Shown piece after piece: positions 8,757-35,608 of a stretch of DNA of 64,000 bases. This DNA is from Bacteroidota bacterium. Lineage in GTDB: Bacteria; Bacteroidota; Bacteroidia; 2-12-FULL-35-15. Numbering within the stretch: the first letter of the stretch is position 1; each line of letters opens with the position of its first letter. The stretch lies in contig SXIH01000038.1 in NCBI GenBank assembly GCA_005772895.1, positions 42,941-106,940 on the forward strand, written 5' to 3'. Made by a program: the position numbers and the translations under genes. Below the pieces are notes generated by a model. It was not told the origin of the DNA, searched no databases, and saw only the letters and a list, made by a program, of their open reading frames with translations.

Positions 8757-8829
8757 TTGCACTTTGAATTTTTGTTTCGCTATTTTGCTCGCAGATTTCA
8801 CGGATTTTCGCAGATTTTTTTTAAAAAAT

Positions 8830-10098
8830 TTATAAAGCACTCTTCAGTATCTCTCCGAATCTATATACATCTTCAAAAGAATTATACAATGGAACGGGTG
8901 CACAGCGAATCACATTTGGTTCCCGCCAGTCAGAAATAATTCCCGCTTCCGTTAATTTGTTGAACAATTCTTTTCCTCTTCCGTGAGCAACAATTGAAAG
9001 TTGACATCCTCTTTGTTTTTTATCTCTTGGAGTAATAATTTCTAATTTTTTATCCAAGGATTTATTGATTTCATCAATAATAAATTCTAAATAACCCGTT
9101 AGTTTTTCTGCCTTAGCAACCAAAGCATCCATACCTACTTCGTTAAAAATATCTACTGAAGCTTTGTGAGCGGCCATGGATAAAACGGGAGCATTGCTCA
9201 TTTGCCAAGCTTCTGCAGTTGGCATTGGTACAAATCCTTTTTCCATTTTAAAACGTGTGTTCTTATCGTGTCCCCACCAACCTGCAAAACGAATAATTTC
9301 CGGTTTGTTCAAATGACGTTCGTGAATATAAACTCCTGCAACTCCACCCGGACCAGAATTTAAATATTTATAACTACACCAACATGCGAAGTCTACATTC
9401 CAATTGTGTAATTCTAATTTTAAATTTCCTGCAGCATGTGCCAAATCAAAACCAACCAATGCTCCGATTTTATGTCCGGCCTCCGTAATGCCCTTCATGT
9501 CGAACACTTGTCCGTTATAATAATTCACTCCACCAATCATAATGGTTGCAATCGAATCTTTGTTTTTTTCAATAGCAGCTAAAATATCTTCGTGACGGAT
9601 GCATATTTCTCCTTCACGTGGAGCAACTTCTATAATAGCATCATCAGGATTTAATCCATGAAATTTTACTTGTGATTCCAATGCATATTGATCGGATGGA
9701 AAAGCTTTTGCTTCACACAAAATTTTGTAACGAGTTTTGGTGGGGCGATAAAAACTCACTAATAACATGTGTAAGTTCACTGTCAGTTGATTCATTACAA
9801 CAACCTCTTCGGGTTTTGCACCAACAATTTTTGCAACAGGTTCAGCAAATTGTTCGTGATAGGGCATCCAGGGTTTACGCGAATGAAAATGACCTTCCAC
9901 ACCAAAAGTTGCCCAATCTTCCAATTCGTTCAAAACATAATCTTGTGTTGCTTTCGGTTGTAATCCCAATGAATTTCCCGTGAAATAAATAGTTTCGCGT
10001 CCATGCATCATTGGGAAATAAAATTTCTCACGATAACTTTTTAAAGGATCTGCTGCATCCTGTTGTTTTGCGTATTCAATGGTGTTTTCGTATTTCAT
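8830..10098 (-). CDS. kynU: Kynureninase (PLP-dependent)
   Basis: 422 aa with blocks FTGNSLGLQPK, GFDLAHAAGN, DFACWCSYKYLNSGPGG, RGCQLS and IRCAPVPLYNSFEDVYRF that match kynureninase throughout. Confidence 0.9.
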   Translation of the reverse strand: MKYENTIEYAKQQDAADPLKSYREKFYFPMMHGRETIYFTGNSLGLQPKATQDYVLNELEDWATFGVEGHFHSRKPWMPYHEQFAEPVAKIVGAKPEEVVVMNQLTVNLHMLLVSFYRPTKTRYKILCEAKAFPSDQYALESQVKFHGLNPDDAIIEVAPREGEICIRHEDILAAIEKNKDSIATIMIGGVNYYNGQVFDMKGITEAGHKIGALVGFDLAHAAGNLKLELHNWNVDFACWCSYKYLNSGPGGVAGVYIHERHLNKPEIIRFAGWWGHDKNTRFKMEKGFVPMPTAEAWQMSNAPVLSMAAHKASVDIFNEVGMDALVAKAEKLTGYLEFIIDEINKSLDKKLEIITPRDKKQRGCQLSIVAHGRGKELFNKLTEAGIISDWREPNVIRCAPVPLYNSFEDVYRFGEILKSAL

Positions 10099-10117
10099 AG
10101 AGCCTTGTCGGTTTTTG

Positions 10118-10134
10118 CTCGCAGAGACGCAGAG
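10118..10134. repeat. Left arm of a perfect 17-bp inverted repeat (CTCGCAGAGACGCAGAG) flanking the GxxExxY gene
   Basis: Its exact reverse complement CTCTGCGTCTCTGCGAG lies at 10603..10619. It is a member of the TCGCAGA repeat family. Confidence 0.8.
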
Positions 10135-10197
10135 TTCGCTGAGCTGTGTGTGTTAGTTGTTGGTGTTATTTACCGTGTGTTTTTGAGACGCAGTAGT

Positions 10198-10575
10198 TTA
10201 GTAATTGTTTACTATTCTTACTATCCCGTCTTTTACAAGGTTTACATTAAAATTTACTAATAATCCTACTTTTTTGTCCGTTAATTTTAAATAAGTCAAT
10301 AATTGTTTGTGGTGAACAGGTGCTAGTGCTTCAACTGATTTTATTTCTACAATAACTTTGTCTTCAACTATAATATCTGCTCTAAATCCAATATCCATTT
10401 TGTTGTCATCATAAAACACTTCGATACCTTCTTGTCTCTTAAAACTTAAGTTTCTTTTTTTTAATTCATAACAGACTACTTCTTCATATATACTTTCCAA
10501 CAATCCTGGACCTAGCCTCGAATGGACTTTTATAAAAATGTCAATAAGTGCCCCTGTAATATCATTTTCCTTCAT
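10198..10575 (-). CDS. GxxExxY family protein (PD-(D/E)XK nuclease-like)
   Basis: 125 aa carrying GLLESIYEEVVCYELKKRNL, the hallmark GxxExxY block, with the DxxV(E)xK-like core downstream. Confidence 0.7.
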   Translation of the reverse strand: MKENDITGALIDIFIKVHSRLGPGLLESIYEEVVCYELKKRNLSFKRQEGIEVFYDDNKMDIGFRADIIVEDKVIVEIKSVEALAPVHHKQLLTYLKLTDKKVGLLVNFNVNLVKDGIVRIVNNY

Positions 10576-10602
10576 AAATATTTTTTAATATGCCTCTGCG
10601 TG

Positions 10603-10619
10603 CTCTGCGTCTCTGCGAG
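10603..10619. repeat. Right arm of the 17-bp inverted repeat flanking the GxxExxY gene
   Basis: Exact reverse complement of 10118..10134. Confidence 0.8.
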
Positions 10620-10654
10620 AAATTTTTTCGCGGAGGATATTGCTTCCAAAGATA

Positions 10655-10662
10655 TATATTTG
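10655..10662 (+). promoter_or_regulatory. Putative Bacteroidota sigma-A -7 element (TATATTTG) for hemL
   Basis: It matches TAnnTTTG and sits about 20 nt upstream of the hemL ATG at 10682. Confidence 0.3.
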
Positions 10663-10681
10663 CATCCTAATATTTTCAATT

Positions 10682-11974
10682 ATGAAGAGAGAAAAATCAG
10701 AAGCTTTATTTGAGAAAGCGAAAAAATATTTTCCCGGTGGTGTAAACAGTCCTGTCCGTGCTTTTCGTTCGGTTGGTGGCACTCCATTGTTTATTCAAAA
10801 AGGCAAAGGCTCACATATTTGGGATGCTGATGGAAATGAGTTTATTGACTATTGCGGTTCCTGGGGACCATTAATTTTAGGACATGCAAATGCTAAGGTG
10901 GTAGACGCCATTAAAAAAACAGTTGAGAATGGCAGCTCGTTTGGTGCACCAACAGCATTGGAAAATGATTTGGCGGAGTTGATTTTGAATAACAATAAAT
11001 ACATTCAAAAAATTCGTTTTGTAAGTTCAGGTACGGAAGCGGTGATGAGTGCTATTCGTTTGGCAAGAGGTTATACAAAAAGAAACAAGATTTTAAAATT
11101 CGAAGGGTGTTATCACGGACATAGTGATTCACTTTTGGTGAAAGCAGGTTCGGGATTGGTGACATTTGGTAATACATCATCAGCAGGAGTTCCTGAGAGT
11201 TTTGTGAATGAAACAATTGTAGTTTCATTGAATAACGAAGCCGCAGTTAAGCAAGCTTTCGCAGAATTTAAAGATCAGATTGCCTGTGTGATTATTGAAC
11301 CCATTCCAGCTAACAATGGATTGTTGTTGCAGCGCAAAGAATATTTGCAATTTTTACGCGACATCTGTACAGAAAACAAAACACTTTTAATTTTTGATGA
11401 AGTAATCAATGGATTCAGAATTGGTTTTGAAGGTGCAGCTGGTTATTATAAAATTCAACCAGACATTATTACTTACGGAAAAATTATTGGTGGTGGTTTG
11501 CCTGTTGGAATGTATGGTTCTTCTGCTGAGATTATGAGTAATATTTCTCCTGAAGGAAATGTGTACCAAGCGGGAACATTGAGCGGAAATCCTGTTGCTA
11601 TGGCAGCCGGGATTGCACAATTAACTGAATGTTTAAAACCTGGATTCTATGAGGAGTTGGAGAGCAAGACGAAGTTTTTGGTAGATTCCATCTTTTCAAA
11701 TTTCAAATTTCAAATTTCAAATTTTAAGATTTACAGTGTTGGTTCCGTTTTTTGGATTGCTTTTACAGATAAAGATGTTGTTCGTTCTGCAGAAGAAATT
11801 GATGCTGACTCAATGAAACATTTCAGAATTCTTCATAAAGAATTATTGGAGCGTGGAATTTATCTTGGTCCGTCAGGTTATGAAGTTGGTTTTGTTTGTG
11901 AAGCACATACAGAAGAAGATTTAATGAAAACAGCAAAAGCTTTTCGTGAAGCTTTGGAAATTGCTATGAAATAG
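10682..11974 (+). CDS. hemL: Glutamate-1-semialdehyde 2,1-aminomutase
   Basis: The protein starts MKREKSEALFEKAKKYFPGGVNSPVRAF and aligns along its full length with HemL. The track ORF starts 14 codons upstream at 10640, but ATG 10682 matches the family N-terminus. Confidence 0.9.
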   Translation: MKREKSEALFEKAKKYFPGGVNSPVRAFRSVGGTPLFIQKGKGSHIWDADGNEFIDYCGSWGPLILGHANAKVVDAIKKTVENGSSFGAPTALENDLAELILNNNKYIQKIRFVSSGTEAVMSAIRLARGYTKRNKILKFEGCYHGHSDSLLVKAGSGLVTFGNTSSAGVPESFVNETIVVSLNNEAAVKQAFAEFKDQIACVIIEPIPANNGLLLQRKEYLQFLRDICTENKTLLIFDEVINGFRIGFEGAAGYYKIQPDIITYGKIIGGGLPVGMYGSSAEIMSNISPEGNVYQAGTLSGNPVAMAAGIAQLTECLKPGFYEELESKTKFLVDSIFSNFKFQISNFKIYSVGSVFWIAFTDKDVVRSAEEIDADSMKHFRILHKELLERGIYLGPSGYEVGFVCEAHTEEDLMKTAKAFREALEIAMK

Positions 11975-12000
11975 ATTAAATTTGTTGTAAATTATTCCTT

Positions 12001-12234
12001 ATGAATATCCAAGCACAAAAAATAGAGTTAGCAAAACAACTTTTAGATGTTAAGAGTGAAGTTGTTTTGAAACAAATCAAAGCATTTTTAAATGCTTACA
12101 AAACTGATTTGTGGGATGAGCTTTCTGATGAGCAGAAAGCCTCCATTCATCGCGCTAAAGTTCAGTTGGCAAACGGTGAAGGTGTTGCTCATAAAGAAGT
12201 AATGAAAAAGTATAAAAAATGGCGTACAAAATAA
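12001..12234 (+). CDS. Putative antitoxin (addiction-module component) of a type II TA pair
   Basis: 77 aa. It overlaps the downstream RelE/ParE toxin gene by 16 nt and has a small helical DLWDELSDEQKASI...KKW architecture typical of Bacteroidota addiction-module antitoxins. Confidence 0.5.
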   Translation: MNIQAQKIELAKQLLDVKSEVVLKQIKAFLNAYKTDLWDELSDEQKASIHRAKVQLANGEGVAHKEVMKKYKKWRTK

Positions 12235-12530
12235 TTTGGTCGCCAGAAGCCATTGATACTTTTGATGCAATAATTAAATATCTTTCTGAAAACTGGTCTG
12301 AACGAGAAGTATCTAATTTCTTAGATGACTCAGAGCACACTATATTTTTATTAGAGAAAAACCCATTTTTATTTCGTGGCTCAACCAAAGAGAGTGTTCA
12401 TGAGGCATTGATAACCAAGCACAATTTATTGTTATATCAAATTGTCGAAAATTCTAAAAGAGTTGAATTAATTAGTTTTTGGGACACACGCCAAAACCCT
12501 AAAAGAAAATTTTTGAAAAAGAAAAGATAA
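12219..12530 (+). CDS. Type II toxin-antitoxin system RelE/ParE-family toxin
   Basis: 103 aa starting MAYKIIWSPEA..D...I..YL, the RelE/ParE N-terminal signature. It is translationally coupled to the upstream small gene. Confidence 0.65.
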   Translation: MAYKIIWSPEAIDTFDAIIKYLSENWSEREVSNFLDDSEHTIFLLEKNPFLFRGSTKESVHEALITKHNLLLYQIVENSKRVELISFWDTRQNPKRKFLKKKR

Positions 12531-12554
12531 TTAAATTCTCTAAAGAAGTGTTTT

Positions 12555-13040
12555 ATGGAAGACGATGATTTCGATTTTAATTTCGATGACCTTTCGGATG
12601 AAGAAAAGGAAGAAATTGAAAAACAACAAAGAGAGGAACGAGAGGCTTTAGAAAATAGTCCTATTTATAAAAAAGCATTTGAGATTTATGAGACTGTAAA
12701 TGCTTTAGTTGAAAGTCTTTCTGATGATGATAAAGAATTCTATCAAAGTATCTTGCTTGAATCTTCAATGATTTTAGCACCAAAAATTGCAGGTGCTTTT
12801 GGAAGTGATAGTTGGTTAATTTGTATGCAAAATGCTTCCATTGTTAGATATCACGCTGAGTATTTACTCACTTCCACTTCCGGATTGAGACTATTTACAA
12901 AAGCACAAAAAGAATATGTGCAATTGTTTCGAACAGAAATGGAAAAGTTTCAAGAGTTATTTAAAGAATGGGTCAAAACATTCGATAAGTTAGAAAAGGA
13001 AGAATATGTTGATGAATGGGGATTATTTTTAAGAAAATAA
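12555..13040 (+). CDS. Hypothetical acidic protein (161 aa)
   Basis: Clean ORF with an Asp/Glu-rich N-terminus. No family recognised. Confidence 0.3.
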   Translation: MEDDDFDFNFDDLSDEEKEEIEKQQREEREALENSPIYKKAFEIYETVNALVESLSDDDKEFYQSILLESSMILAPKIAGAFGSDSWLICMQNASIVRYHAEYLLTSTSGLRLFTKAQKEYVQLFRTEMEKFQELFKEWVKTFDKLEKEEYVDEWGLFLRK

Positions 13041-13112
13041 TATATTTTTCTGCGTAAATCTGCGTAATCTGCGAGCCATTTCCTATATTTATTCCATCAA
13101 AACTACTTCACA

Positions 13113-13982
13113 ATGGTAAAAAATATTCTTGTTATCGGAGCTACAGGAATGCTTGGCAAACCGGTCACTAAAGAATTAGCGAATTCCGGATTTACTGTTT
13201 CTGCACTTGTACGCAATCCTGAAAAAGCAAAAAAAGAATTGCCGGCAAATATCAAACTCATCAAAGGAGATATTTCAAGCGAAAAAGACTTAGTGAATGC
13301 TATGCAAGGGCAAGATGCTGTGTATTTAAGTTTATCTATTAAACAAAACGAAAAAAAATCTGCTTTTCACAGTGAACAAGAGGGAATGCAGAACGTAATA
13401 AAAGCAGCAAAACAGCAGAACATAAAACGTATCGGATATTTATCTTCTCTGGTAATGTTCTATCAGGGAATGAATGGTTTTAATTGGTGGGTGTTTGAAT
13501 TAAAACACAATGCTGTGAAAATGCTGAAAGAAAGTGGTATTCCTAGTACAATTTTTTATCCTTCTAATTTTATGGAGAGTCTTGCCGGAATGTACAAGCA
13601 AGGAAAAATGTTGATGCTTGCCGGTAAATCATCTTATCCAATGTATTTTATTTCGGCTTTTGATTATGGAAAACAAGTAGCAAAATCATTTTCAATTTTA
13701 TCGGATGAAAATAAAGAATATGTTGTTCAAGGTACAGAAGCATTTAATGCGGACGATGCTGTAAAATTATTTAAGTCGCATTACAAAAAAGAAAAATTAT
13801 TTATTTCGAAAGCGCCATTAGGAATGATTAAATTTTTTGGAATGTTCACAACTAAAATGAATTATGGTGCACATATTTTGGATGCTTTAAATAATTATCC
13901 TGAAAAATTTGAAGCAGAAACTACCTGGAAAGAATTGGGTAAACCGCAAATGACAATTAAAAAATATTCAGAAGAACTTTAA
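13113..13982 (+). CDS. NAD(P)H-binding NmrA-like / atypical SDR family oxidoreductase
   Basis: 289 aa with an N-terminal ILVIGATGMLGKPV Rossmann motif. Confidence 0.55.
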   Translation: MVKNILVIGATGMLGKPVTKELANSGFTVSALVRNPEKAKKELPANIKLIKGDISSEKDLVNAMQGQDAVYLSLSIKQNEKKSAFHSEQEGMQNVIKAAKQQNIKRIGYLSSLVMFYQGMNGFNWWVFELKHNAVKMLKESGIPSTIFYPSNFMESLAGMYKQGKMLMLAGKSSYPMYFISAFDYGKQVAKSFSILSDENKEYVVQGTEAFNADDAVKLFKSHYKKEKLFISKAPLGMIKFFGMFTTKMNYGAHILDALNNYPEKFEAETTWKELGKPQMTIKKYSEEL

Positions 13983-25586: not shown

Positions 25587-27731
25587 TTGGATTCAAACGC
25601 ATCTTTCGTTCACTTTTCTGATAAAACAACTGTAAAAGTTGCTCTTGTTGGAAACCCCAACAGTGGCAAGTCCACTTTATTTAATGCACTTACAGGCTTA
25701 AATCAAAAAACGGGAAATTTTCCTGGAGTTACTGTCGATAAAAAATCGGGTTTTGCCAAATTAAATTCAACAATTACTGCCGAATTTATTGATTTACCTG
25801 GAACTTATAGTTTATACCCCAAATCGCTTGATGAACGGGTTGCTTTTGAAGTGCTTTGTAATAGTGAAAATGCCCACCATCCCGATGTAACAGTTATTGT
25901 TGCGGATGCCAGTAATCTAAAACGAAATTTGTTTTTAGTTTCTCAAATCATTGATTTAAAAATTCCTGTTATTCTTGCACTCAATATGATGGATATGGTG
26001 GAGAAAGAAGGCGATGCGATTGATGTTATTCGGTTATCCGAAAAATTGGGAGTAAAAGTTGTTGGAATTAGTGCAAGAAACAAAGAGGGGGTTGAAGAAC
26101 TCAAACAAGCTTTGTTACAACCATTGCCGGTACCGCAGTATGACTTTATCGACATTCATAAAATTGCTCCCGAAGCAATTGATAAAATAAAATCTGTATT
26201 AAAAGTAAAAAGCGATTTTTCTGCTTTTCAAATTGCAAACAATCTTTCAGATATTAATTATTTGCATAATAAAGAAATGCAAATAAAAATTACCGATGCT
26301 CTTAATACTTTAATCATTGATAAAAATAAACTACAATCATTAGAAAGTGTTGAACGGTACAAAACAATTAACCGCATTGTTGAAGAATGCATTACTCGTA
26401 AATCAGCAATAAAAACACAATCGTTCACTCAAAAATTAGATAGTGTTTTAACACATAGAATTTGGGGTTATGCTATTTTTTTAGTGGTGCTTTTTCTGAT
26501 ATTTCAAGCTATTTTTTTTCTTGCAGCTTTTCCAATGGAATGGATTGAAAGCTTATTTATTTCTATTTCTGAAATAACTGCAAATGTTTTACCGCAAGGA
26601 GAACTTAGTAATTTATTGGTAAACGGAATAATAGCAGGATTGAGTGGAGTAGTAGTATTTGTCCCGCAAATAGCATTACTTTTTGCTTTTATTGCCATTT
26701 TAGAGGATACGGGCTATATGGCACGTGTGAGTTTTATTATGGATAAACTTATGCGAAGATTCGGATTAAACGGTCGCTCTGTTATTCCATTGATAAGCGG
26801 AGTTGCTTGTGCTGTGCCTGCTATTATGAGTGCACGTACCATCAGTAGCTGGAAAGAACGCATCATTACTATTTTTGTAACACCATTAATGAGTTGTTCT
26901 GCACGACTTCCTGTTTATACACTTTTGATTTCATTAGTTGTTCCACAAGATAAAAATTCGGGATTTTTTAATTATCAAGGGTTGATATTGATGGCTTTGT
27001 ATTTGATTGGATTTATTGCTGCAATCGGATCTGCATGGGTGATGAAATGGATTTTAAAAGCAAAAGAAAAAAGTTATTTTATTATGGAGCTGCCTGTGTA
27101 CCGTACCCCACAGTGGCGTACGGTCGGACTAACAATTTACGATAAAGTAAAATTATTTTTGTTTGACGCGGGAAAAATTATTGTTGCAATTTCTATCATC
27201 CTTTGGTTTTTATCTTCACATGCACCTGGAAATAAATTTGATGAGATTGAAAAAAAATATCAAGACTATAGTTTCAGGGGAGATTTAAATCAAGATGAGA
27301 TAGCAGCAAAAATTTCATCCGAAAAATTAGAGGTATCCTATGCAGGAATGCTTGGAAAATCTATAGAACCCGCCATCAAACCTTTAGGATTTGACTGGAA
27401 AATTGGAATTTCTTTGGTTACATCATTTGCTGCACGTGAAGTATTTGTAGGAACAATGGCAACTATTTACAGCGCAGGAAATACCGACAATACACAAAGC
27501 ATAAGAGAGAAAATGCAAGCAGAAAAAGATCCGGAAACAGGAAAACCAAAATATTCAATTGCTGTAGGATTTTCATTAATGATTTTTTATGCCTTCGCAA
27601 TGCAATGTATGAGTACACTTGCGGTAGTATACAGAGAAACAAAAAGCTGGAAATGGCCGACTGTGCAATTCTTCTTTATGGGAGCACTAGCTTATGTTTC
27701 TAGTTTTATTGTTTATCAATTGTTGAAATAA
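25587..27731 (+). CDS. feoB: Ferrous iron transport protein B
   Basis: 714 aa with an N-terminal G-domain (VALVGNPNSGKSTLFNALTG) and polytopic membrane domains. The start is TTG as read from the display, so the exact start is uncertain. Confidence 0.9.
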   Translation: MDSNASFVHFSDKTTVKVALVGNPNSGKSTLFNALTGLNQKTGNFPGVTVDKKSGFAKLNSTITAEFIDLPGTYSLYPKSLDERVAFEVLCNSENAHHPDVTVIVADASNLKRNLFLVSQIIDLKIPVILALNMMDMVEKEGDAIDVIRLSEKLGVKVVGISARNKEGVEELKQALLQPLPVPQYDFIDIHKIAPEAIDKIKSVLKVKSDFSAFQIANNLSDINYLHNKEMQIKITDALNTLIIDKNKLQSLESVERYKTINRIVEECITRKSAIKTQSFTQKLDSVLTHRIWGYAIFLVVLFLIFQAIFFLAAFPMEWIESLFISISEITANVLPQGELSNLLVNGIIAGLSGVVVFVPQIALLFAFIAILEDTGYMARVSFIMDKLMRRFGLNGRSVIPLISGVACAVPAIMSARTISSWKERIITIFVTPLMSCSARLPVYTLLISLVVPQDKNSGFFNYQGLILMALYLIGFIAAIGSAWVMKWILKAKEKSYFIMELPVYRTPQWRTVGLTIYDKVKLFLFDAGKIIVAISIILWFLSSHAPGNKFDEIEKKYQDYSFRGDLNQDEIAAKISSEKLEVSYAGMLGKSIEPAIKPLGFDWKIGISLVTSFAAREVFVGTMATIYSAGNTDNTQSIREKMQAEKDPETGKPKYSIAVGFSLMIFYAFAMQCMSTLAVVYRETKSWKWPTVQFFFMGALAYVSSFIVYQLLK

Positions 27732-27735
27732 ACAC

Positions 27736-27808
27736 TACGAATTACGAAATTTTTCGAATTACGAATCTATACAATGATTATTTTTGAGTAATAATTCGTA
27801 ATTCGTAG
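27736..27808. repeat. TTCGTAATTCG-family repeat cluster with a perfect 14-bp inverted repeat (ctacgaattacgaa ... ttcgtaattcgtag)
   Basis: Two direct copies (27736..27749 and 27755..27766) plus an inverted copy (27795..27808), lying between feoB and the SprT-like gene. Confidence 0.7.
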
Positions 27809-27812
27809 AAAA

Positions 27813-28472
27813 GTGAATCAACTCGAACGTAACCAATCCATTCTTAATAAATATATTCCGGAAAAGGCTGTTCCCGTTATTTCCGAATGGATTTACAAAT
27901 TCGATTTCAAATTAAAAATAAAAAAGAGTCGTAGTTCTAAGTATGGTGATTATAGGCCACCTGTAAAAGGAGAAAATCATTTGATTACAATTAATTACGA
28001 TATGAACAAGTATGCTTTTTTAATTACACTTGTTCATGAAATTGCTCATTTATCTACTTACAACAAGCATAAGGATAGTGTAAAACCGCATGGAGAAGAA
28101 TGGAAATTACATTATAAATTATTAATGCAGCAATTTTTAATTCCAGATATTTTTCCTGTAGATGTCATCACAGCATTAAGAAAATACATGAATAATCCGG
28201 CTGCATCCAGTTGTTCGGATACAAATTTATTGAGGCTCCTTAAAAATTACGATAATAAACAAGATATTGTGCTTTTAGAAGATATTCCGGTAGGTTCAAC
28301 CTTTTCTTATAATAACAACAGACACTTTATAAAAGGCCCTCAATCGCGAAAACGCATCAAATGTACAGATGTTAATACCAAAGCGACCTATCTATTCAAC
28401 CCCATAACAGAAGTATTGGTAATTCATACACCTTTGTTTGCCGAAAATAAGGCAAAAATCACCAACAATTAA
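27813..28472 (+). CDS. SprT-like zinc-metallopeptidase domain protein
   Basis: 219 aa with an HEIAH motif in an SprT-like context. GTG start. Confidence 0.5.
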   Translation: MNQLERNQSILNKYIPEKAVPVISEWIYKFDFKLKIKKSRSSKYGDYRPPVKGENHLITINYDMNKYAFLITLVHEIAHLSTYNKHKDSVKPHGEEWKLHYKLLMQQFLIPDIFPVDVITALRKYMNNPAASSCSDTNLLRLLKNYDNKQDIVLLEDIPVGSTFSYNNNRHFIKGPQSRKRIKCTDVNTKATYLFNPITEVLVIHTPLFAENKAKITNN

Positions 28473-28505
28473 TCAACAAATAAGCACAAGGTATTGGGTT
28501 TTTGT

Positions 28506-28513
28506 TAAATTTG
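28506..28513 (+). promoter_or_regulatory. Putative -7 element (TAAATTTG) for the aminotransferase gene
   Basis: It matches TAnnTTTG and sits 47 nt upstream of the ATG at 28560. Confidence 0.3.
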
Positions 28514-28559
28514 TTTATCACAATAAATACCAATTAATAATGCTTAAAAATTTTACATT

Positions 28560-29852
28560 ATGAGTGCAAATACAATGGAAAAAAACATCGATTTGAAAGT
28601 ATCAAAACTGGCTCAGAATATTATCGGGTCGGAAATTATAAAGTTGGCTGCTGAGGTGAATGAAAAGATTAAACAAGGCGAGAAAGTTTATAATTTTACT
28701 ATCGGTGATTTTAACCCAAAGATTTTTCCTATTCCTGCTGAATTAAAAACAGCAATCATTGCAGCTTATGAAGATGATCAAACAAATTATCCGGCAGCGG
28801 ATGGAATGTTGGAATTGCGTCAATCGGTTGCAAAACTTTTAAAAGAACGCGGTAATTTAGATTATAAAACGGATGAGATAGTGATTGCTGGAGGAGCTCG
28901 TCCTGTAATTTATGCAATTTTTAAAGCATTGGTGGATGAAGGTGATACTGTTGTTTTTCCGGTTCCATCATGGAACAATAATCACTACACGTATTTAAAC
29001 AATGCAAAACCGGTGTTGATTGAAACAACTCCCGAAAATAAATTTATGCCTACTGCAGCTGATTTAAAACCTTATATCAGTTCTGCTAATTTAATTGCAT
29101 TGTGTTCTCCTTTGAATCCAACGGGAACAACTTTCCGTAAAAAAGATCTGGAAGAAATTTGTGATATGATTTTGGAGGAAAATGAAAAACGTACACTCGC
29201 AAATAAAAAACATTTGTATTTAATGTACGATCAAATTTATTGGGAATTAACTTTTGGAGATACTAAACATTATAATCCTGTATCACTTCGTCCGGAAATG
29301 AAAAATTATACGGTGTTTGTTGATGGAATTTCTAAATCTTTGTCGGCAACCGGAGTGAGAGTAGGTTGGAGTATGGGTCCGAAAAAAATCATTGAAAAAA
29401 TGAAATCCATTTTAACGCATGTTGGAGCTTGGGCTCCGAAAGCTGAACAAATGGCAACAGCGACATATTTGAATGATTTAAATACTTACGAAAGTTTTTT
29501 AACTAATACCAAAACAAAAATTAACGATCGTTTAGTTGGAATTTACAAAGGATTTCAAAGTTTAAAAGCAGAAGGATTTAAAATAGATGCCATTGCTCCG
29601 GAAGCAGCTATTTATTTAACCGTGCAGTTTGCGTTGCATGGAAAAACAAAAGCGGATGGAACAGTTCTGAAAACAACACAGGATGTTACCAAATATATTT
29701 TGGATGAAGCAAAAGTTGCATTGGTGCCTTTTTATGCATTTGGTGCTTCTGATGATTCAAACTGGTATCGTTTGTCGGTTGGAACTTGTAAAGTAGAAGA
29801 GATTGAAGCGGTGATTGAAAGTTTGAGAAGTGCATTAAAGAAACTTAAGTAG
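28560..29852 (+). CDS. Pyridoxal-phosphate-dependent aminotransferase, class I/II
   Basis: 430 aa with aspartate/aromatic aminotransferase-like blocks and the PLP-lysine region (SKS...GVRVGW). Confidence 0.6.
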   Translation: MSANTMEKNIDLKVSKLAQNIIGSEIIKLAAEVNEKIKQGEKVYNFTIGDFNPKIFPIPAELKTAIIAAYEDDQTNYPAADGMLELRQSVAKLLKERGNLDYKTDEIVIAGGARPVIYAIFKALVDEGDTVVFPVPSWNNNHYTYLNNAKPVLIETTPENKFMPTAADLKPYISSANLIALCSPLNPTGTTFRKKDLEEICDMILEENEKRTLANKKHLYLMYDQIYWELTFGDTKHYNPVSLRPEMKNYTVFVDGISKSLSATGVRVGWSMGPKKIIEKMKSILTHVGAWAPKAEQMATATYLNDLNTYESFLTNTKTKINDRLVGIYKGFQSLKAEGFKIDAIAPEAAIYLTVQFALHGKTKADGTVLKTTQDVTKYILDEAKVALVPFYAFGASDDSNWYRLSVGTCKVEEIEAVIESLRSALKKLK

Positions 29853-29854
29853 CC

Positions 29855-30004
29855 CCAACGAATTACTAAAAAAAAGTACGAAAAATACGAAATACAAATC
29901 CAAGAGCTGTATTATCTAATCGACAATTTGTTATTCGTATATTTCGTAAAAATTCGTAATTCGATGGAGTCGATTGTAGTGTGTTATTAATTCGTAATTC
30001 GTAG
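29855..30004. repeat. TTCGTAATTCG-family repeat cluster (degenerate and intact copies)
   Basis: Intact copies attcgtaattcga at 29952..29964 and ttcgtaattcgtag at 29991..30004, plus degenerate acgaattac / tacgaaa units at 29858..29900. Confidence 0.6.
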
Positions 30005-30008
30005 TTTT

Positions 30009-31097
30009 GTGAAGAATAATTATTGTGTGATAATGGCAGGTGGCGTTGGAAGCCGCTTTTGGCCGATGAGCAGAACGGCTCATCCTAAGCAGTTCATGGA
30101 TATTTTAGGAACCGGCAAAACACTTTTGCAACAAACCTATAGCCGGTTTTTAAGACTTTGTCCGAAAGAAAATATCTTTATTGTCACCAACGATTCTTAT
30201 GTTGATTTAGTAAAGGAGCAAATCAAAGGAATTGCTTCCGAAAATATTTTGAGCGAACCGGCACGTAAAAATACAGCTCCCTGTGTGGCATATGCTTGTT
30301 ATAAAATAGCTCAATTAAATCCTGATGCGCTTACAGTTGTTGCACCTTCAGATCACTTAATTGTGAAAGAAGATACTTTTGTGAAAGCAATTAAAGCCTG
30401 TTATTTAAAAGCAGCTTCTGAAGATTGTCTGGTTACATTAGGAATACGTCCAAGCCGACCAGATACTGGTTATGGTTACATTCAATTTGTAGAATCAGCA
30501 ACAAAGGAAAAAGATAAACGGATTAAAAAAGTAAAAACGTTTATGGAAAAGCCGCAATTAGAAATGGCAAAATTCTTTTTGCAGAGCGGTGATTTTTTGT
30601 GGAACTCAGGAATTTTTATTTGGAGCGTGAAAAGTGTTATCAAAGCATTTGAGAAACATTCTCCGGAAATGGATGCTATTTTTAAAGAAGGAAATGGTGC
30701 ATATAATACTCCAAAAGAAGCGGAATTTATTGCAAAAGCATATACTAATTGTAAGAATATTTCTATTGATTATGCATTGATGGAAAAGGCGGAGAATGTG
30801 TATGTACGTTCATCCATCATTGGTTGGAGCGATTTAGGTACTTGGGGTTCGCTTTATGATCACATTAAACAAGATGACAATAACAATGCAATAGTTGGGA
30901 AAAATGTGATGATGTACGATTCAAAAAATTGTATTGTGAATGTTTCAAAAGATAAGTTAGTGGTGATGCAAGGATTGGAAGATTATATTGTTGTTGAATC
31001 GGATGGAATTTTGTTAATCTGCAAAAAACAAGATGAACAAGAAATTAAAACATTTGTAAACGATGTTAAGATTCAAAAAGGAGATAAGTTTGTTTAG
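30009..31097 (+). CDS. Mannose-1-phosphate guanylyltransferase (GDP-mannose pyrophosphorylase)
   Basis: 362 aa with the nucleotidyltransferase motif VIMAGGVGSRFWPMSR and a C-terminal left-handed beta-helix-like region. GTG start at 30009. Confidence 0.7.
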   Translation: MKNNYCVIMAGGVGSRFWPMSRTAHPKQFMDILGTGKTLLQQTYSRFLRLCPKENIFIVTNDSYVDLVKEQIKGIASENILSEPARKNTAPCVAYACYKIAQLNPDALTVVAPSDHLIVKEDTFVKAIKACYLKAASEDCLVTLGIRPSRPDTGYGYIQFVESATKEKDKRIKKVKTFMEKPQLEMAKFFLQSGDFLWNSGIFIWSVKSVIKAFEKHSPEMDAIFKEGNGAYNTPKEAEFIAKAYTNCKNISIDYALMEKAENVYVRSSIIGWSDLGTWGSLYDHIKQDDNNNAIVGKNVMMYDSKNCIVNVSKDKLVVMQGLEDYIVVESDGILLICKKQDEQEIKTFVNDVKIQKGDKFV

Positions 31098-31098
31098 A

Positions 31099-31165
31099 AG
31101 TGACTAGGTGATTGAGTGACTAAGTAACTAGGTTTGTGATTGGGTAATAAGGTGATAGGGTTAGT
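31099..31165. repeat. GTGACTAGGTGAT-type low-complexity repeat (left copy)
   Basis: Reads agtgactaggtgattgagtgactaagtaactaggtttgtgattgggtaataaggtgatagggttag. The inverted counterpart lies at 32105..32156. Confidence 0.6.
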
Positions 31166-31262
31166 TTTAATTTAAATTTTACGATAATTAATTCCCCCTT
31201 TGGAAAAGGGGGTTAGGGGGATTTGATGAGGGGAGAAAAATTATAATTAAAAAAGAAAAACA

Positions 31263-31943
31263 TCAATCAACATTTTTTCCGTCAGCATACTTCTTCCCTC
31301 TGTAAGCTCCTGAAAAATATACAATGAACTTCGCTCCGAAAATAGCTTGTTCTTGATTCCAATCCACAAAAAAAGTAAATCCTGCTCCAACATCATAGGT
31401 AATTTTTTTTACTCCTTCTATCTGAGCATAAATTCCGGGTTGACTAAAAGGGCGCGTATAAACAGTGTCACCAACTTTTCCATAACCTGTAGAGTAGGAA
31501 ATTCCTGCAAACCCTGCAAAATGAATGTCTTTATCCTCAAAGCGTTTTCCGTATCCTAAATGAAATTCATAGTTGTCGTAAAAACCAAATTTTTCTCCCG
31601 AAATAAAAGTTCCTAATTGAAAGTAGTGTTGTTTAATGTGAAAATTGTAATCTAATCCTCCCGCAAAACCAATTTTTCTTTTATATGTTAAATTTTGATT
31701 AAAGCCTCCACCAACAGTCAGCCAGTTGTTATAATAGCGAAGCTTTTTATTTTTTAGAATAAAAGTACTGTCAACAGGTGGTATGTGCCTTTTCTTTTTA
31801 GTTGCAACGGTTTGCTCAACTTGTTTTGCCTCTTCAACTTTTTTATACCGAACTCCATTTATCACAGTATCTGTTTGTGAAAAAATGGAAGTAGCAATAA
31901 AACTAATTGCAATAAAAAGTAAAATGGAAAAATATTTTTTCAA
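31263..31943 (-). CDS. Hypothetical outer-membrane/secreted protein (226 aa)
   Basis: Signal peptide MKKYFSILLFIAISFIATSIFSQ and an aromatic-rich beta-strand-like composition ending in F/Y-rich segments. It is flanked by inverted GTGACTAG repeats. Confidence 0.35.
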   Translation of the reverse strand: MKKYFSILLFIAISFIATSIFSQTDTVINGVRYKKVEEAKQVEQTVATKKKRHIPPVDSTFILKNKKLRYYNNWLTVGGGFNQNLTYKRKIGFAGGLDYNFHIKQHYFQLGTFISGEKFGFYDNYEFHLGYGKRFEDKDIHFAGFAGISYSTGYGKVGDTVYTRPFSQPGIYAQIEGVKKITYDVGAGFTFFVDWNQEQAIFGAKFIVYFSGAYRGKKYADGKNVD

Positions 31944-32061
31944 AATTTTAATAGTAAAATTAACGGGGATGATATTTATTAACGCAGAAATAAGTTTAAT
32001 TAGTATAAATTACTCACTCACTTTTTCACTTCCTAACAATGGCATTGCTTCTCATCGGGAG

Positions 32062-32101
32062 ATCCCGTGTCGTGGCACGGGATGACGGCTCCGAAGGAAC
32101 C
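32062..32101. other. GC-rich structured element (hairpin atcccgtg-tcgtgg-cacgggat, plus ggctccgaaggaacc)
   Basis: About 65% GC over 60 nt in a roughly 35% GC genome, with a perfect 8-bp stem. Not a tRNA and no U-tract. Confidence 0.3.
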
Positions 32102-32104
32102 TAC

Positions 32105-32156
32105 TCATAACCCCATAACCCCATCACCTAGTCACTTAATCAGCTAGTCACCTACT
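32105..32156. repeat. GTGACTAGGTGAT-type repeat (inverted copy; overlaps the fumC stop)
   Basis: Contains atcacctagtcact (the reverse complement of agtgactaggtgat) and ataaccccataacccc (the reverse complement of the gggttatggggttat-like units). Confidence 0.6.
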
Positions 32157-33549
32157 TCATACTTCCACACATATCTTCTGGCTTTACCCACTGATCAAAC
32201 TGTTCGTTGGTAACATAACCCAATTCAATTGCAGCTTCACGCAAAGTTTTGTTTCCTTTGTGCGCTGTCTTGGCAATTTTCGCGGCTTTCTCGTAACCAA
32301 TATGTGTGTTCAATGCAGTAACTAACATCAAGGAATTTTCCAAATGTTGTTTTAACATTGCTAAATTTGGTTCAATTCCTACCGCACAATTATCATTGAA
32401 TGAAACACAAGCATCACCAATTAAACGAGCCGACTGCAAAACATTTGCAGCAATTACAGGTTTGAAAACGTTTAATTCAAAATGACCATTTGATCCTCCA
32501 ATAGAAACAGCAACATCATTTCCCATTACCTGAGCACACACCATTGTCAATGCTTCTGGCTGAGTTGGATTTACTTTCCCAGGCATAATTGAAGAACCTG
32601 GTTCGTTATCCGGAATAATTAATTCTCCAATTCCTGAGCGTGGACCAGAAGACAACATTCTGATATCGTTTGCAATTTTCATTAATGAAACAGCTGTACG
32701 TTTTAATGCTCCTGATAATTCAACCATTGCATCGTGTGCTGCTAATGCTTCAAATTTATTTGGTGCAGTTACAAAAGGCAAACCTGTTAATTCAGCAATT
32801 TTTTTCGCAACTAAAACATCGTATCCTTTTGGAGTATTTAATCCTGTTCCTACAGCAGTTCCACCCAATGCCAATTCACGAACCATTTCCAATGCGTTTT
32901 TAATTGCACGGATTCCATTCGTTAATTGTTGTGCGTATCCTCCAAACTCTTGTCCGAGTGTTAAGGGTGTTGCGTCCATAAAATGCGTACGACCTGTTTT
33001 TACAATATTTTTAAAGTCGTTTGATTTTTTTAATAAAGTATCTCTTAGTTTTTCAATCCCAGGAAGTGTAACATCCACCACTTGTTTGTACGATGCGATG
33101 TGCATAGCTGTTGGATACGTATCGTTTGACGATTGTGATTTATTTACGTCATCATTCGGATGCAATACTTTTTTATCATCAGCTAATTTTCCTCCGCTGA
33201 TTACATGAGCACGGTAAGCAATTACTTCATTCGCATTCATGTTGGATTGAGTGCCCGAACCAGTTTGCCAAATCACCAACGGAAATTGATCATCTAATTT
33301 TCCGGCAATAATTTCATCACAAGCTTTTGCGATAAGGTCTTTTTTATCAGCAGATAAAACACCCAATTCACAATTTGCCATTGCAGCAGCTTTTTTCAAA
33401 TAACCGAATGCATATATAATTTCCTTTGGCATACTTGCTTCAGGTCCTATTTTAAAATTGTTGCGGGAACGCTCAGTTTGTGCTCCCCAATATTTGTCAG
33501 CAGGTACTTTTACCTCGCCCATCGTGTCTGTTTCAATTCTGTATTCCAT
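32152..33549 (-). CDS. fumC: Fumarate hydratase, class II
   Basis: 465 aa starting [28 protein letters not shown], with the GSSxMPxKxN signature ([13 protein letters not shown]). Confidence 0.95.
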
Positions 33550-33588
33550 TGTCTTTAATATTTAATTTTCTTACTGTAAATTTAAGAT

Positions 33589-33948
33589 TTATTTCAATGA
33601 TTTGATGAACTCCAATACTTTTTCAGAAGGCCTGCCAATAATAGCTTTTTTTCCTTTTACAACGATAGGTCGCTCAATAAGAATAGGGTTTTGAGCCATT
33701 GCTTTTATCCATTGTGCTTCGGTTAATTTCTTTCCCTCATACTTTTCCAAAAATAAAGGCTCTTTTTTTCGTACCAAATCCACTGCTTTTATTCCTAACT
33801 TTTTTAAAAGCTCTTTTATTTCAGCTTGAGTAGGAGGTGTTTTTAAATATTCAAACACTTCTGTTTTTACTTTCTTTTTTTCTAAGATAGTGCAAACCTC
33901 TCTGCTTTTTGAGCAACGTATGTTGTGGTAAATTTTAACTGTTTCCAT
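33589..33948 (-). CDS. ArsC/Spx/YffB-family protein (arsenate-reductase-like thioredoxin fold)
   Basis: 119 aa with an N-terminal [12 protein letters not shown] motif. Its 5' end overlaps the 3' end of prfB by 14 nt. Confidence 0.65.
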
Positions 33949-35024
33949 ATTCCATTAAATAAGCTTTAATAAAATCTTTCAAATCTCCATCCATTACTGC
34001 TTGAATGTTGGATGTTTCATGTCCCGTTCTTACATCCTTAATTAATTTGTACGGATGAAAAACATAATTGCGGATTTGTGAACCCCATTCAATTTTCTTT
34101 TTATTCCCTTCAATCACATTTATGGCTTCGCGTTGTTTTCGCAATTCAATTTCGAACAATTGAGATTTTAATAATTTGATTGCGTTCTCTTTGTTTTGTA
34201 ATTGTGAACGCGATTCTTGATTTTTAATGATGATTCCGGATGGCTTGTGATACAAGCGTACTGCTGTTTCTACCTTGTTTACATTTTGTCCGCCAGCACC
34301 GCCAGCTCTAAATGTTTCAAATTCTAAATCACCAGGATTTACATCAATTTCAATTGTATCATCAATTAATGGATACGCATATACGGAAGCAAAAGAAGTA
34401 TGTCGTTTTGCATTTGAATCAAATGGAGAAATACGAACCAAACGATGAACTCCGTTTTCGCCTTTTAAATATCCGAATGCGTAATCGCCTTCAAATTCCA
34501 ATGTCACCGATTTTATTCCAGCTGTATCTCCGTCTGTTCTGTCCGTCTCTTTTATTTTATACCCGTTTTTACTTCCCCACATCATATACATTCGCATCAA
34601 CATTTCTGCCCAGTCGCAGCTTTCTGTTCCGCCTGCTCCTGCATTTATTTGTACAACACAACTTAAAATATCCTCTTTTCCACTTAGCATATTTTTGAAT
34701 TCAATTTCTTCTAACAGCTGAACAGTAGTTTGAAATTGTTCTTCTACATCTTGCTCTGTGGCTTCACCTTGCTTAAAATAATCATACAACAAGGTAAGGT
34801 CATCCACGTTGCTTTGTGCTTTAGCAAATGAAATGGTCCAATTCTTTTTTAATTTGGTTTGTTTTAGCAGTTCTTCTGCTTTTTTTGGGTCGTCCCAGAA
34901 ATTCGGTGCGAGTGCTTTCTCTTCTTCTTCAGCTATTTCGCGAAGTTTACGGTCGATGTCAAAGATGCCCCCTTAACGCACTGGTGCGCTCCCGAAGGTC
35001 TTTTAGTTGGTCTGTAGTAATCAT
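33935..35024 (-). CDS. prfB: Peptide chain release factor 2, with programmed +1 ribosomal frameshift
   Basis: Frame 1 runs from ATG 35024 and encodes [21 protein letters not shown], stopping at TGA within AGGGGGCATCTTTGAC (CTT at 34964..34962). After the +1 shift the reading continues [13 protein letters not shown]... into the track ORF 33935..34807, which carries the GGQ motif ([16 protein letters not shown]). This is the classic CUU UGA C site with an upstream SD-like AGGGGG. Confidence 0.85.
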
Positions 35025-35082
35025 ACTGCGAAGTTAATAAATATTGGGAATTTGAGAGAGAAATAAGAGTATTTTTGCAATA

Positions 35083-35562
35083 ATGAAGCCGACAAAATAT
35101 TTCAGAACAACTACAGGTGAATATTGTCATATTGATGACGAAACAGTATATATCTTTAACAGCAAGGAACCAACACGTATTCCATTAGAGCACGAAGTAA
35201 GTGATGCTTGGGGAATAAAGAGTGTGTTGAATTATATTTTCTTTGCTTTTATACTTTTCTATACTATGTTTTCTATGTCATATTATGGAAGTAGTTTTTT
35301 TAAGCACATCCTCAATTACGGAGCCCTGCTTTTATTAGTGCTTTCACTTATGCAAATTAAAGAAGCATTTGTGAGCAGCAGTACCCCAACTATTCAAAGA
35401 AATAAAATAAAAAATGTACTTTTTAAAACTCCAATTTTTTCCTACCCTAGAGTATTAATTTATTTTGAAGGACCAGAAGGAAAAATTTTGAGAAGAAGTA
35501 TTTCGGTGAAGTATAAGCAGGAGGGAATTCAGATTTTGAAGGAGTCAGGATTAATGACGTGA
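35083..35562 (+). CDS. Hypothetical membrane protein (159 aa)
   Basis: Clean ORF with two predicted TM helices. No family recognised. Confidence 0.3.
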   Translation: MKPTKYFRTTTGEYCHIDDETVYIFNSKEPTRIPLEHEVSDAWGIKSVLNYIFFAFILFYTMFSMSYYGSSFFKHILNYGALLLLVLSLMQIKEAFVSSSTPTIQRNKIKNVLFKTPIFSYPRVLIYFEGPEGKILRRSISVKYKQEGIQILKESGLMT

Positions 35563-35571
35563 TTCGCTTTT

Positions 35572-35608
35572 TTTCTCGCAGATTTCGCAGATTCTCGCAG
35601 ATTTTTCT
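35572..35608. repeat. TCGCAGAT short tandem repeat (ctcgcagatttcgcagattctcgcagat)
   Basis: Three tandem roughly 9-bp units. Same family as the copies at 8785..8820, 10112..10134, 10597..10619 and 13048..13076. Confidence 0.7.

Follow-up and report, generated by a model that had tools for sequence, protein, structure and literature searches.

Five short tandem repeat arrays are dispersed between the genes of a 64,000-nucleotide stretch of DNA from a Bacteroidota bacterium (GenBank assembly GCA_005772895.1, contig SXIH01000038.1, positions 42,941 to 106,940), which is referred to at its full length as the window. With a probability of roughly 0.6, we read these arrays as arms that terminate the small palindromic selfish cassettes of one family, built on a PD-(D/E)XK nuclease and resembling either the repetitive extragenic palindromic (REP) sequences with their REP-associated tyrosine transposases (RAYTs) or the intervening sequences (IVSs) of 23S rRNA. 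The family would comprise full-length cassettes, in which two inverted arms enclose a GxxExxY gene of ~375 nt, gene-less doublets comparable to REP doublets forming hairpins (REPINs) or to short IVSs, and solo arms, three of which occur in the window. The window stems from a metagenome assembly, has a guanine-cytosine (GC) content of ~34% and encodes Por_Secre_tail proteins, and its best database matches carry the names Bacteroidota or Bacteroidia.

A GxxExxY gene enclosed by inverted three-unit arms

The arrays at 10115-10143 and 10594-10622 form an inverted pair of 29 nt, 86% complementary and with 450 nt between its members, which was not recorded in an earlier description of the window made from its letters without database searches (hereafter, the sequence-only reading). 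The pair is located between divergent aminotransferase and kynureninase genes and encloses the sole GxxExxY copy in the window, an open reading frame (ORF) at 10198-10575. Read on the gene strand, the cassette consists of the upstream (R) arm (TTTCTCGCAGAG ACGCAGAG CACGCAGAGG), which ends ~25 nt ahead of the GxxExxY ATG, a 25-nt leader, the ORF, a 64-nt spacer and the downstream (F) arm, followed after 20 nt by the kynureninase start codon. The same R-gene-F layout is observed in L036, L140, L155 and other comparison loci (L-numbers denote stretches of genomes, metagenomes or a viral collection). When the cassette is folded as single-stranded RNA, the minimum free energy and centroid structures both have the arms paired with each other and the ORF enclosed between them (dG -104.4 kcal/mol, z -2.9).

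The translated product belongs to the GxxExxY family, matching TIGR04256 (E 2.6e-42; 143.9 bits, cut-off 35) and PF13366 PDDEXK_3 (E 4.8e-41; 140.2 bits, cut-off 22). Residues G24, E27, Y30, D67, E77 and K79 are invariant in both homologue alignments, with the family motif and the E...D...ExK catalytic set retained. The AlphaFold (AF2) model of the protein (predicted local distance difference test score, pLDDT, 87) has Cas4 SSO0001 as its closest structure in the PDB (E 9e-4; template modelling (TM) score 0.54), followed by lambda-exonuclease-like enzymes, AdnAB and RecE. Matches to Cas4 profiles are weak, nothing beyond these was found with defence-system models, and a PDB sequence search with the protein gave no match. 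Between the window and the orthologue in L210 there are 36 synonymous and six non-synonymous differences (proportions per site, pS 0.474 and pN 0.020; pN/pS ~0.04), with the pS of 0.47 lying below that of the adjacent kynureninase gene in the same comparison (0.66). By this substitution pattern the protein is under purifying selection, and it looks functional. The family is large, with 18,548 clusters at 50% identity (E <= 1e-3) in 1.84 billion representatives, 6,215 of them at E <= 1e-10, and a survey of the PD-(D/E)XK enzymes lists its function as unknown and notes 'multiple transfers' (PMC3424549).

Many GxxExxY proteins in the databases are annotated at 132-147 amino acids, as opposed to 125 here, and their over-long N-termini probably stem from gene callers reading through the stop-free R arm, as with ...SQRRRDRRE... 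in L036. Some representatives of 266-296 amino acids contain two GxxExxY domains, which could be a fusion or a read-through of tandem cassettes.

Association of the arms with GxxExxY genes

A repeat-independent test was made on 80 metagenomic loci picked by protein similarity alone (52-80% identity), a generic array being defined as at least two units of T[CT][TGA]G[CT]G at 7-11 nt. Such an array is located within 150 nt of the gene in 68 of the 76 GxxExxY genes with enough flanking sequence, as compared to 12 of 114 control ORFs in the same loci. Arrays are present on both sides of 47/76 GxxExxY genes and of a single control ORF (1/114), and where at least three units are required the counts are 48/76 and 4/114, respectively. 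The unit types in the 80 loci are CTTTGCG (45), CTCTGCG (18), CTTGGCG (10) and CTTTGTG (4). The two arms of a cassette co-vary: the median arm-alignment score is 33 for an element's own arms and 17 for the arms of other elements (p 1e-15), while unit-core identity between partner arms is 0.49, against 0.25 +/- 0.02 with shuffled partners. With respect to the arms the gene is found in both orientations (19 R-gene-F; 7 F-gene-R). GxxExxY genes with CACAGAG / CTCTGTG arms are also found amid housekeeping genes in the cultured Bernardetia sp. and Bacteroides finegoldii, in whose RefSeq records the arms carry no repeat annotation.

The arms were also approached from the repeat itself, by scanning one genome per species across 185,579 species for the pattern TCTGCG-N2-5-TCTGCG-N2-5-TCTGCGAG. 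At least 120 matches were obtained, against ~17 expected at equal base frequencies by our own calculation. Among the matches listed, at least ten phyla and GC contents of 0.32-0.75 are represented, including Bacteroidota, Verrucomicrobiota, Planctomycetota, Acidobacteriota, Nitrospirota, Myxococcota, Gammaproteobacteria, Spirochaetota, Cyanobacteria, Chloroflexota and others; a few matches from actinobacteria of high GC content are simple repeats within coding sequence. Arms mostly read ...C TCTGCGnnC TCTGCGcC TCTGCGAGA and have CTCGCAGAGgCGCAGAGnnCGCAGAG close by as their inverted counterpart. A GxxExxY ORF stands between R and F arms, or between two full doublets, in six of the genome loci, which belong to different phyla, and when the ORFs next to the arrays of 120 loci were clustered, GxxExxY was the sole recurrent small family.

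An arm consists of three direct units of 8-10 nt with the core C-T-Y-K-G-Y-G, which in the window is (A/C)TCTGCG, and its terminus is always ...CTGCG(A/T)G, often followed by an A-rich stretch. A tally of 338 arms gave three units for 240, a spacing of 8 nt for 248 and one of 9 nt for 74 (consensus CTtTGCGcCTCTGCGAGAgA). A census of 128 evaluable arms recorded 60 in R-loop-F doublets within 200 nt, 15 in F-loop-R doublets, seven with partners on both sides, 12 with a partner at a gene-sized distance of 200-700 nt and 34 solo. Inverted doublets with 10-200 nt between the arms thus dominate (75/128), and the same arms bracket either the GxxExxY gene or a short loop, so that terminal inverted repeats are shared between non-coding copies and an enzyme-encoding element.

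Two stretches of the IMG/VR collection are rich in arms. In the 14-kb L241, three-unit arms of the CACAGAG, CTCTGTG, ATCTGTG and CTTTGCG types occupy many intergenic gaps, while at L301 2573-4609 arms are present in nearly every gap. In both of these phage-like contigs the arm orientation frequently switches from R to F and back, a single ORF separating each arm from the next; one such ORF is HNH-like, and the part examined contains no GxxExxY gene. In L301, CACAGAG arms (8-9 nt) and ATCTGTG/ATCAGTG arms (10 nt) alternate around single ORFs, linking the GAG and GAT types.

The arrays of the window

All five arrays listed in the sequence-only reading exist and are intergenic as it had claimed, with Tandem Repeats Finder giving periods of 9-10 nt and 2.6-3.2 copies (Table 1). 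A mechanically called ORF (8271-8840) overlaps the first array; this is an over-extension, since alignment with orthologues places the true start at the ATG ending at 8756. The arrays had been described as two to three units of ~9 bp with the common unit TCGCAGAT. The period is 8-10 nt, every array has three units, and each, when read in one of its two orientations, ends in CTGCGAG; the proposed unit fits the solo arrays but not those at 10112 and 10597, where the unit is CGCAGAG. Exact copies of TCGCAGAT number seven in the window, against 1.03 expected (0/100 shuffles reached seven), and same-strand CGCAGA pairs 6-13 nt apart also number seven, against a mean of 0.005 in 200 Markov shuffles. 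With respect to the refuting outcome named in the sequence-only reading, a count no higher than base composition predicts, the counts in the window and in the genome collection both lie far above chance. The seventh exact copy, at 50802, is single, lies within an ORF and looks like a chance occurrence.

Table 1. Arms, gene and candidate relative in the window
Feature	Position	Strand	Array and its units	Reading or remark
Solo arm	8788..8815	-	8788-8815: CTCGCAGAT TTCACGGAT TTTCGCAGAT (middle unit degenerate)	minus-strand reading ATCTGCGAAA ATCCGTGAA ATCTGCGAG; units 9-10 nt
Downstream (F) arm	10115..10143	-	10118-10143: CTCGCAGAG ACGCAGAG TTCGCTGAG	gene-strand reading CTCAGCGAA CTCTGCGT CTCTGCGAG caa
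GxxExxY protein gene	10198..10575	-		125 aa, predicted minimal PD-(D/E)XK nuclease; between the arms
Upstream (R) arm	10593..10622	-	10593-10619: CCTCTGCGTG CTCTGCGT CTCTGCGAG	gene-strand reading TTT CTCGCAGAG ACGCAGAG CACGCAGAGG
Solo arm	13049..13075	+	13049-13075: TCTGCGTAAA TCTGCGTAA TCTGCGAG	
Solo arm	35575..35602	-	35575-35602: CTCGCAGAT TTCGCAGAT TCTCGCAGAT	minus-strand reading ATCTGCGAGA ATCTGCGAA ATCTGCGAG
Heptamer array	63815..63839	+	(ATTTCAG)x3.6	candidate relative of the CAGAT-type arms

The first solo arm is located in the 73-nt spacer from the kynureninase stop (8830) to the start of a DUF1905 gene (8756), the second 9 nt past the stop of a 161-aa ORF (last base 13040) and 37 nt ahead of an NmrA-like gene, and the third in the convergent spacer between a 159-aa ORF and recX. 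A heptamer array had further been proposed as possibly related; (CAGATTT)x3.6 does exist, while its kinship to the family is suggestive, CAGAT-core arrays with a 9-10-nt period accompanying arms in L107, L240, L286, L291 and L301. Tandem repeats of TGTCTA(C/T) / GTAGACA adjoin the 35575 arm and the CAGATTT array (35620-35660 and 63868-63900, respectively), and this repeat is kept, with a different copy number, beside the orthologous arm in L333 (1984-2030).

Polymorphism in close relatives

The sequence-only reading had proposed comparing close relatives for the presence and absence of the arrays, and in this comparison both the arrays and the cassette proved to be present, broken or absent at the same spot. 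Syntenic loci were found via kynureninase homologues with 87-92% amino acid identity. The contigs L001-L005 are 99.9-100% identical to the window and represent the same strain, showing no polymorphism. At the site between the aminotransferase and kynureninase genes, an intact cassette is present in the window and in L210 and L211, which derive from two samples and have the same arms and a protein with 95% identity. A GxxExxY pseudogene with CGCAAAG/CTTTGCG arms occupies the site in L212, a degenerate CAGAT-type R-arm remnant with the cassette leader and no gene in L206, and gene-less F..R remnants in L208 and L213, while almost nothing is left in L207 and L209 has a clean 77-nt empty site. In L206, the kynureninase gene of which is 93% identical in nucleotide sequence to that of L210, a CACAGAT/CGCAGAT array with a 10-nt period stands where the CGCAGAG arm does, linking the GAT(T) and GAG types.

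Both cassette ends are tandemly amplified in L210 and L211 in units of ~105 nt, with at least seven copies upstream and 3-4 downstream. The upstream unit comprises flank, R arm, leader and the first ~40 nt of the ORF, and the downstream unit the F arm, flank and the first ~35 nt of kynureninase. The amplification (L210 4552-6000; L211 1-1358) is seen in two independent samples with small differences between copies, and is either an artefact of assembly or the outcome of repeated breaks and their repair at the arms.

The solo arms vary in a similar manner. The spacer downstream of kynureninase contains an ATCTGCG arm in F orientation in the window, a CACAGAT pair in R orientation in L206, two copies of CACTAAGA in L208 and nothing in five relatives. 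In the recX spacer, L333 (93% RecX identity) keeps an orthologous but drifted array with the terminus GTG for GAG, L329 and L330 have a CTCTGTG-type array and L334 has none. The array at 13049 coincides with a breakpoint in gene content relative to L206 and L207. A second small insertion is found in this neighbourhood: a ParE-like toxin (12219-12530), with a 77-aa ORF upstream (~12001-12234), is situated between the aminotransferase gene and the 161-aa ORF and is missing from the syntenic L206, L207 and L208.

These data bear on the suggestion, also made in the sequence-only reading, that the arrays are regulator-binding iterons, i.e. that direct repeats of 9-10 bp serve as operators of a host transcription factor such as a response regulator. 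Such a role would agree with direct repeats spaced at roughly a helical turn, and with the finding that on the F-arm side four window arrays out of five precede a start codon by 20-63 nt. However, most arms have an 8-nt spacing, which is not the helical repeat, the motif is kept across many phyla and GC contents of 0.32-0.75 beside unrelated genes, and arrays come and go in close relatives although the neighbouring genes are conserved. The strand and position bias that the sequence-only reading had advised checking was scored on 202 arms with usable flanks; orientation is unbiased, and the arms are nearer stops (136) than starts (84). Since no bias exists beyond this 3'-end preference, operator and promoter readings are rejected, and we consider the iteron claim highly improbable.

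It could also be argued that the three solo TCGCAGAT-type arrays have nothing to do with the arms of GxxExxY genes and constitute a separate Bacteroidota repeat family, or a product of replication slippage in AT-rich spacers, that happens to share the CTGCG core. None of the 92 GxxExxY loci has ATCTGCG arms at 9-10 nt, the window is full of other intergenic tandem repeats (TACGAAT, GTGACTAG, TGTCTAC, TCTAAAA, CAGATTT), and arrays at one site change their unit in concert between relatives, as slippage or conversion would give. Against this, the solo arrays have the three-unit design and the exact CTGCGAG end of the gene-flanking arms. Units in Bacteroidota are often ATCTGCG at 9-10-nt spacing, like those of the window solo arrays, and this type makes the same R-loop-F doublets (L029, L031, L048, L105) and occurs in mixed arms (L011, L105). 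Furthermore, a GAT-type array replaces the GAG-type arm at the L206 cassette site, and the change from GAG to GTG in L333 is a switch between the two canonical termini. Near-identical 27-mers of the 13049 array recur in Draconibacterium, Saprospiraceae and other Bacteroidota (L006, L019, L037, L046, L100) and in L263, and they do so at non-homologous sites in different genera, a recurrence that slippage cannot explain. A separate origin is therefore rather improbable, and the solo arrays were presumably made by the same machinery as the cassette arms.

Comparison with rRNA intervening sequences

Under an RNA-level explanation, the R and F arms of a co-transcribed, IVS-like cassette would pair into a stem of ~25 bp that is cut by RNase III, releasing or insulating the transcript, and solo arms would be inert leftovers. 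The architecture of the Coxiella and Leptospira IVSs is similar, with a terminal stem of ~28 bp, a small ORF in the loop and an element of ~430 nt, as are their sporadic spread and the existence, in other taxa, of short forms without an ORF (PMC4990558). In the predicted fold given above, the arms of the window cassette pair around the whole ORF, cassettes often stand between co-directional genes, and the recX spacer of L331 and L332 contains a sister cassette, a 507-nt insertion with a frameshifted four-helix-bundle gene of the IVS type (TIGR02436, E 1e-36) flanked by its own tandem-unit arms, which are inverted GTGAYTAR arrays. However, the mismatches between paired arms comprise 37 G-U and 45 A-C pairs (p 0.44) and 119 transversions, without a sense-strand excess of G-U. 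The gene occurs in both orientations between its arms, as counted above, and the doublets and solo arms have no orientation bias towards neighbouring genes. Action at the DNA level is favoured over a purely RNA role because G-U pairs are not in excess and both gene orientations occur. The RNA explanation also leaves the spread of the cassette unexplained; it is compatible with the selfish-cassette reading rather than exclusive of it, and is on its own unlikely, though less so than the other alternatives considered here.

The likeness to the IVS of 23S rRNA extends to terminal inverted repeats of ~25-28 nt, a stem around ~400-450 nt with one small ORF, ORF-less short versions, sporadic occurrence, selfish behaviour and a presumed horizontal acquisition (PMC4990558), and the cassette arms, at 29 nt and 86% complementarity, agree with the IVS stem of ~25-30 bp with an optional ORF in the loop. 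Unlike the IVSs, which are inserted in helix 9, 25 or 45 of the 23S rRNA gene, the window elements lie in intergenic DNA beside ordinary genes, no rRNA or Rfam family being present in the window, their arms are made of three tandem units of 8-10 nt, their ORF encodes a PD-(D/E)XK nuclease, and solo arms and doublets are dispersed. By analogy with the IVS, the cassette arms might be cut by RNase III; the indirect test, for a sense-strand G-U signature in the arms, was neutral.

Among the comparison loci, one further four-helix-bundle gene was found, in L140, with weakly matching arms, while a single-sequence query of the viral collection found no four-helix-bundle relatives. As just L140 was added, the extension to this family rests on two cases. 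The window itself contains a second inverted pair of tandem units (31098-31165 / 32100-32151; GTGACTAG GTGATTGA GTGACTAA...), 35 nt long, 80% complementary and 982 nt apart, which flanks an ORF at 31263-31943 encoding 226 amino acids without a family match. The unit family of this pair, GTGAYTAR, also flanks the four-helix-bundle gene of L331/L332 (1972-2503). From this it would seem that every family of small 'selfish' genes is accompanied by an arm family of its own.

Comparison with REP elements and other small repeats

The sequence-only reading had compared the arrays to REP elements or bacterial interspersed mosaic elements (BIMEs). This holds inasmuch as the family is multi-copy, intergenic and free in orientation, occurs mostly as two arms in inverted arrangement and is linked to a nuclease gene with inverted copies on its two sides. 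It does not hold for the GTAG/CGTC tag, which is lacking, for the arms, which are direct triplets and not palindromes, or for the gene, which is a PDDEXK_3 and not a Y1 transposase. The window has five arms in its 64 kb.

Mobilisation of classical REP or BIME elements by a RAYT (a Y1 HUH transposase) can consequently be given almost no credence. Dispersal in intergenic DNA, both orientations and frequent inverted doublets would agree with it, and a Y1_Tnp-like ORF is present in the relative L206, but that ORF is flanked by other palindromes and no Y1_Tnp homologue was found in the window. The gene flanked by arms is a PDDEXK_3 gene in 68 of 76 cases. A single arm is without an internal dyad, a palindrome arising just from two inverted arms, whereas the REP unit is an imperfect palindrome of 20-40 bp with a GTAG or CGTC end tag (PMC3733652); that tag is absent from the window arms, the consensus terminus of which is CTCTGCGAGA.

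The cassettes do resemble the REP/REPIN-RAYT systems in that a short repeat stands in inverted orientation on the two sides of a nuclease-type gene, is otherwise dispersed intergenically as doublets and singlets, favours the 3' ends of genes and co-varies with the associated gene copy (PMC3116915; PMC3733652; PMC5581495). They differ in the enzyme, which is of the PD-(D/E)XK (Cas4/RecB-like) and not the HUH Y1 type, in the triple direct repeat as opposed to one tagged imperfect palindrome, in the loss and pseudogenisation of gene copies at orthologous sites, and in the conservation of the repeat sequence across phyla.

Miniature inverted-repeat transposable elements (MITEs) such as Correia/NEMIS are short, non-coding and strain-variable, with terminal inverted repeats and an intergenic location. 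Heptamer arrays known as short tandemly repeated repetitive (STRR) sequences were reportedly described by Mazel in 1990, and small dispersed repeats of cyanobacteria are said to have been treated by Elhai in 2008. The elements described here share with these groups their small size, terminal inverted repeats or tandem heptamers, intergenic placement and variability between strains. Unlike MITEs, they have no evident target-site duplication, their enzyme partner is not a recognised transposase and their arms have three units as a rule.

The PD-(D/E)XK nucleases Cas4, TnsA of Tn7 and Rpn/YhgA (PDDEXK_2) act in DNA rearrangement or in the processing of DNA ends. GxxExxY shares their fold and catalytic motif, for which there is precedent in promoting DNA rearrangement. 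It differs from Cas4 in being a bare core of 125 amino acids without the Fe-S cluster domain, and from both Cas4 and TnsA in its location outside CRISPR loci and Tn7-like transposons.

As intrinsic terminators the doublets were considered and rejected from their sequences. Such a terminator is a GC-rich hairpin with a U-run on its 3' side. The doublets have their T-run ahead of the R arm and an A-rich stretch after the F arm (TTTCTCGCAGAG...CTCTGCGAGAAA), and since no U-run follows the stem on either strand, they do not conform to this pattern.

A proposed selfish cassette family and its possible mechanism

We propose that the elements are selfish DNA-level cassettes, either mobile or recombinogenic. 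The nuclease encoded between the arms would recognise or cut the structure formed by the arms, as a duplex or as an extruded hairpin, both in cis and in trans, and its action could give rise to insertion, loss, replacement and amplification of the ends. Leftover doublets and solo arms would then persist in intergenic DNA, mostly at the 3' ends of genes.

Several points weigh against this reading. A GxxExxY gene was found in just 7/120 of the array-bearing genome loci, of each of which 8 kb was covered, and gene-less copies therefore greatly outnumber cassettes. With ATCTGCG arms at 9-10 nt standing beside none of the 92 GxxExxY ORFs, the membership of the solo arrays rests on their anatomy and two positional cases. 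In the viral collection, arrays occur in 113 stretches, and none of the 97 loci analysed has a GxxExxY ORF; some phage-like contigs, moreover, have arrays in nearly every intergenic gap around unrelated ORFs. The arms may therefore spread or function independently, or serve the host or phage. Comparison of the occupied site with its empty counterpart in L209 reveals no evident target-site duplication, but the site is degenerate. Relaxed arrays lying beyond 600 nt from the GxxExxY gene of a metagenomic locus are in modest excess (0.17 against 0.11 per kb by chance), and unit type tracks protein identity weakly (0.618 against 0.590). The window also supplied the motif with which the genomes were scanned. 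The arm anatomy, the inverted pairing, the link between gene and arms, the co-variation of partner arms, the spread over phyla, the varied states of one site in relatives and the conservation of the protein are observed, while action of the nuclease on the arms and the movement of the cassette are inferred.

A broader claim, which we put forward tentatively and regard as less probable than its opposite, is that the GxxExxY proteins may serve as enzymes to a class of mobile elements in bacteria that has so far gone unrecognised. They would recognise arms of three tandem octamers and mobilise their own cassette, doublets and solo arms across at least ten phyla and into phage genomes. Such elements would be a functional analogue of REP/RAYT with a different catalytic fold, and would be evolutionarily tied to the 23S rRNA IVS, with four-helix-bundle ORFs in sister cassettes. 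No description of the arms or of their link to GxxExxY was found in Rfam, in full-text papers (a search that does not cover subscription-only ones) or in the annotation of public records. Rfam families are absent from the window and limited to tRNAs in 12 array-rich loci, and no paper in the full-text literature combines IVS-protein, four-helix-bundle, PDDEXK and RAYT.

Should the link prove causal, a second enzyme class would join the REP/RAYT paradigm of domesticated or selfish repeat systems. GxxExxY / PDDEXK_3, a large orphan family, gains a concrete candidate substrate in the three-unit inverted arms. The arms also mark breakpoints in gene content and hotspots of rearrangement, and probably inflate predicted N-termini. 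Where rRNA intervening sequences come from and how they move are, to our knowledge, questions that have stood since 1990, and a sister cassette with a four-helix-bundle gene, in an intergenic site that arms also occupy, is relevant to the first of them.

Other repeats in the window

Heptamer arrays of TACGAAT/ATTCGTA are located at 3925-3960, 27731-27812 and 29853-30008, with a local hairpin at 27735-27753 / 27790-27808 and long-range inverted pairs that bracket SprT-like and aminotransferase genes (27813-29852). Arrays of ATTCGTG adjoin TCTGCG arms in the other Bacteroidota loci L027 and L123. The 16-mer AGGGGG(T/C)TAGGGGGAT occurs twice between genes, at 31207-31222 and 61893-61908, against none expected in 100 shuffles, and looks like another dispersed repeat family. 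The spacer at 6158-6248 is an inverted repeat (AAGCAAGATGTTAGAAT ... ATTCTAACATCTTGCTT), with a related segment at the orthologous place in L208 (15283-15354). Finally, a 243-nt tandem repeat at 40054-42926, with 11.8 copies of 75% identity, lies in a higher-GC part of the window inside an ORF of 2,973 amino acids (38451-47372).

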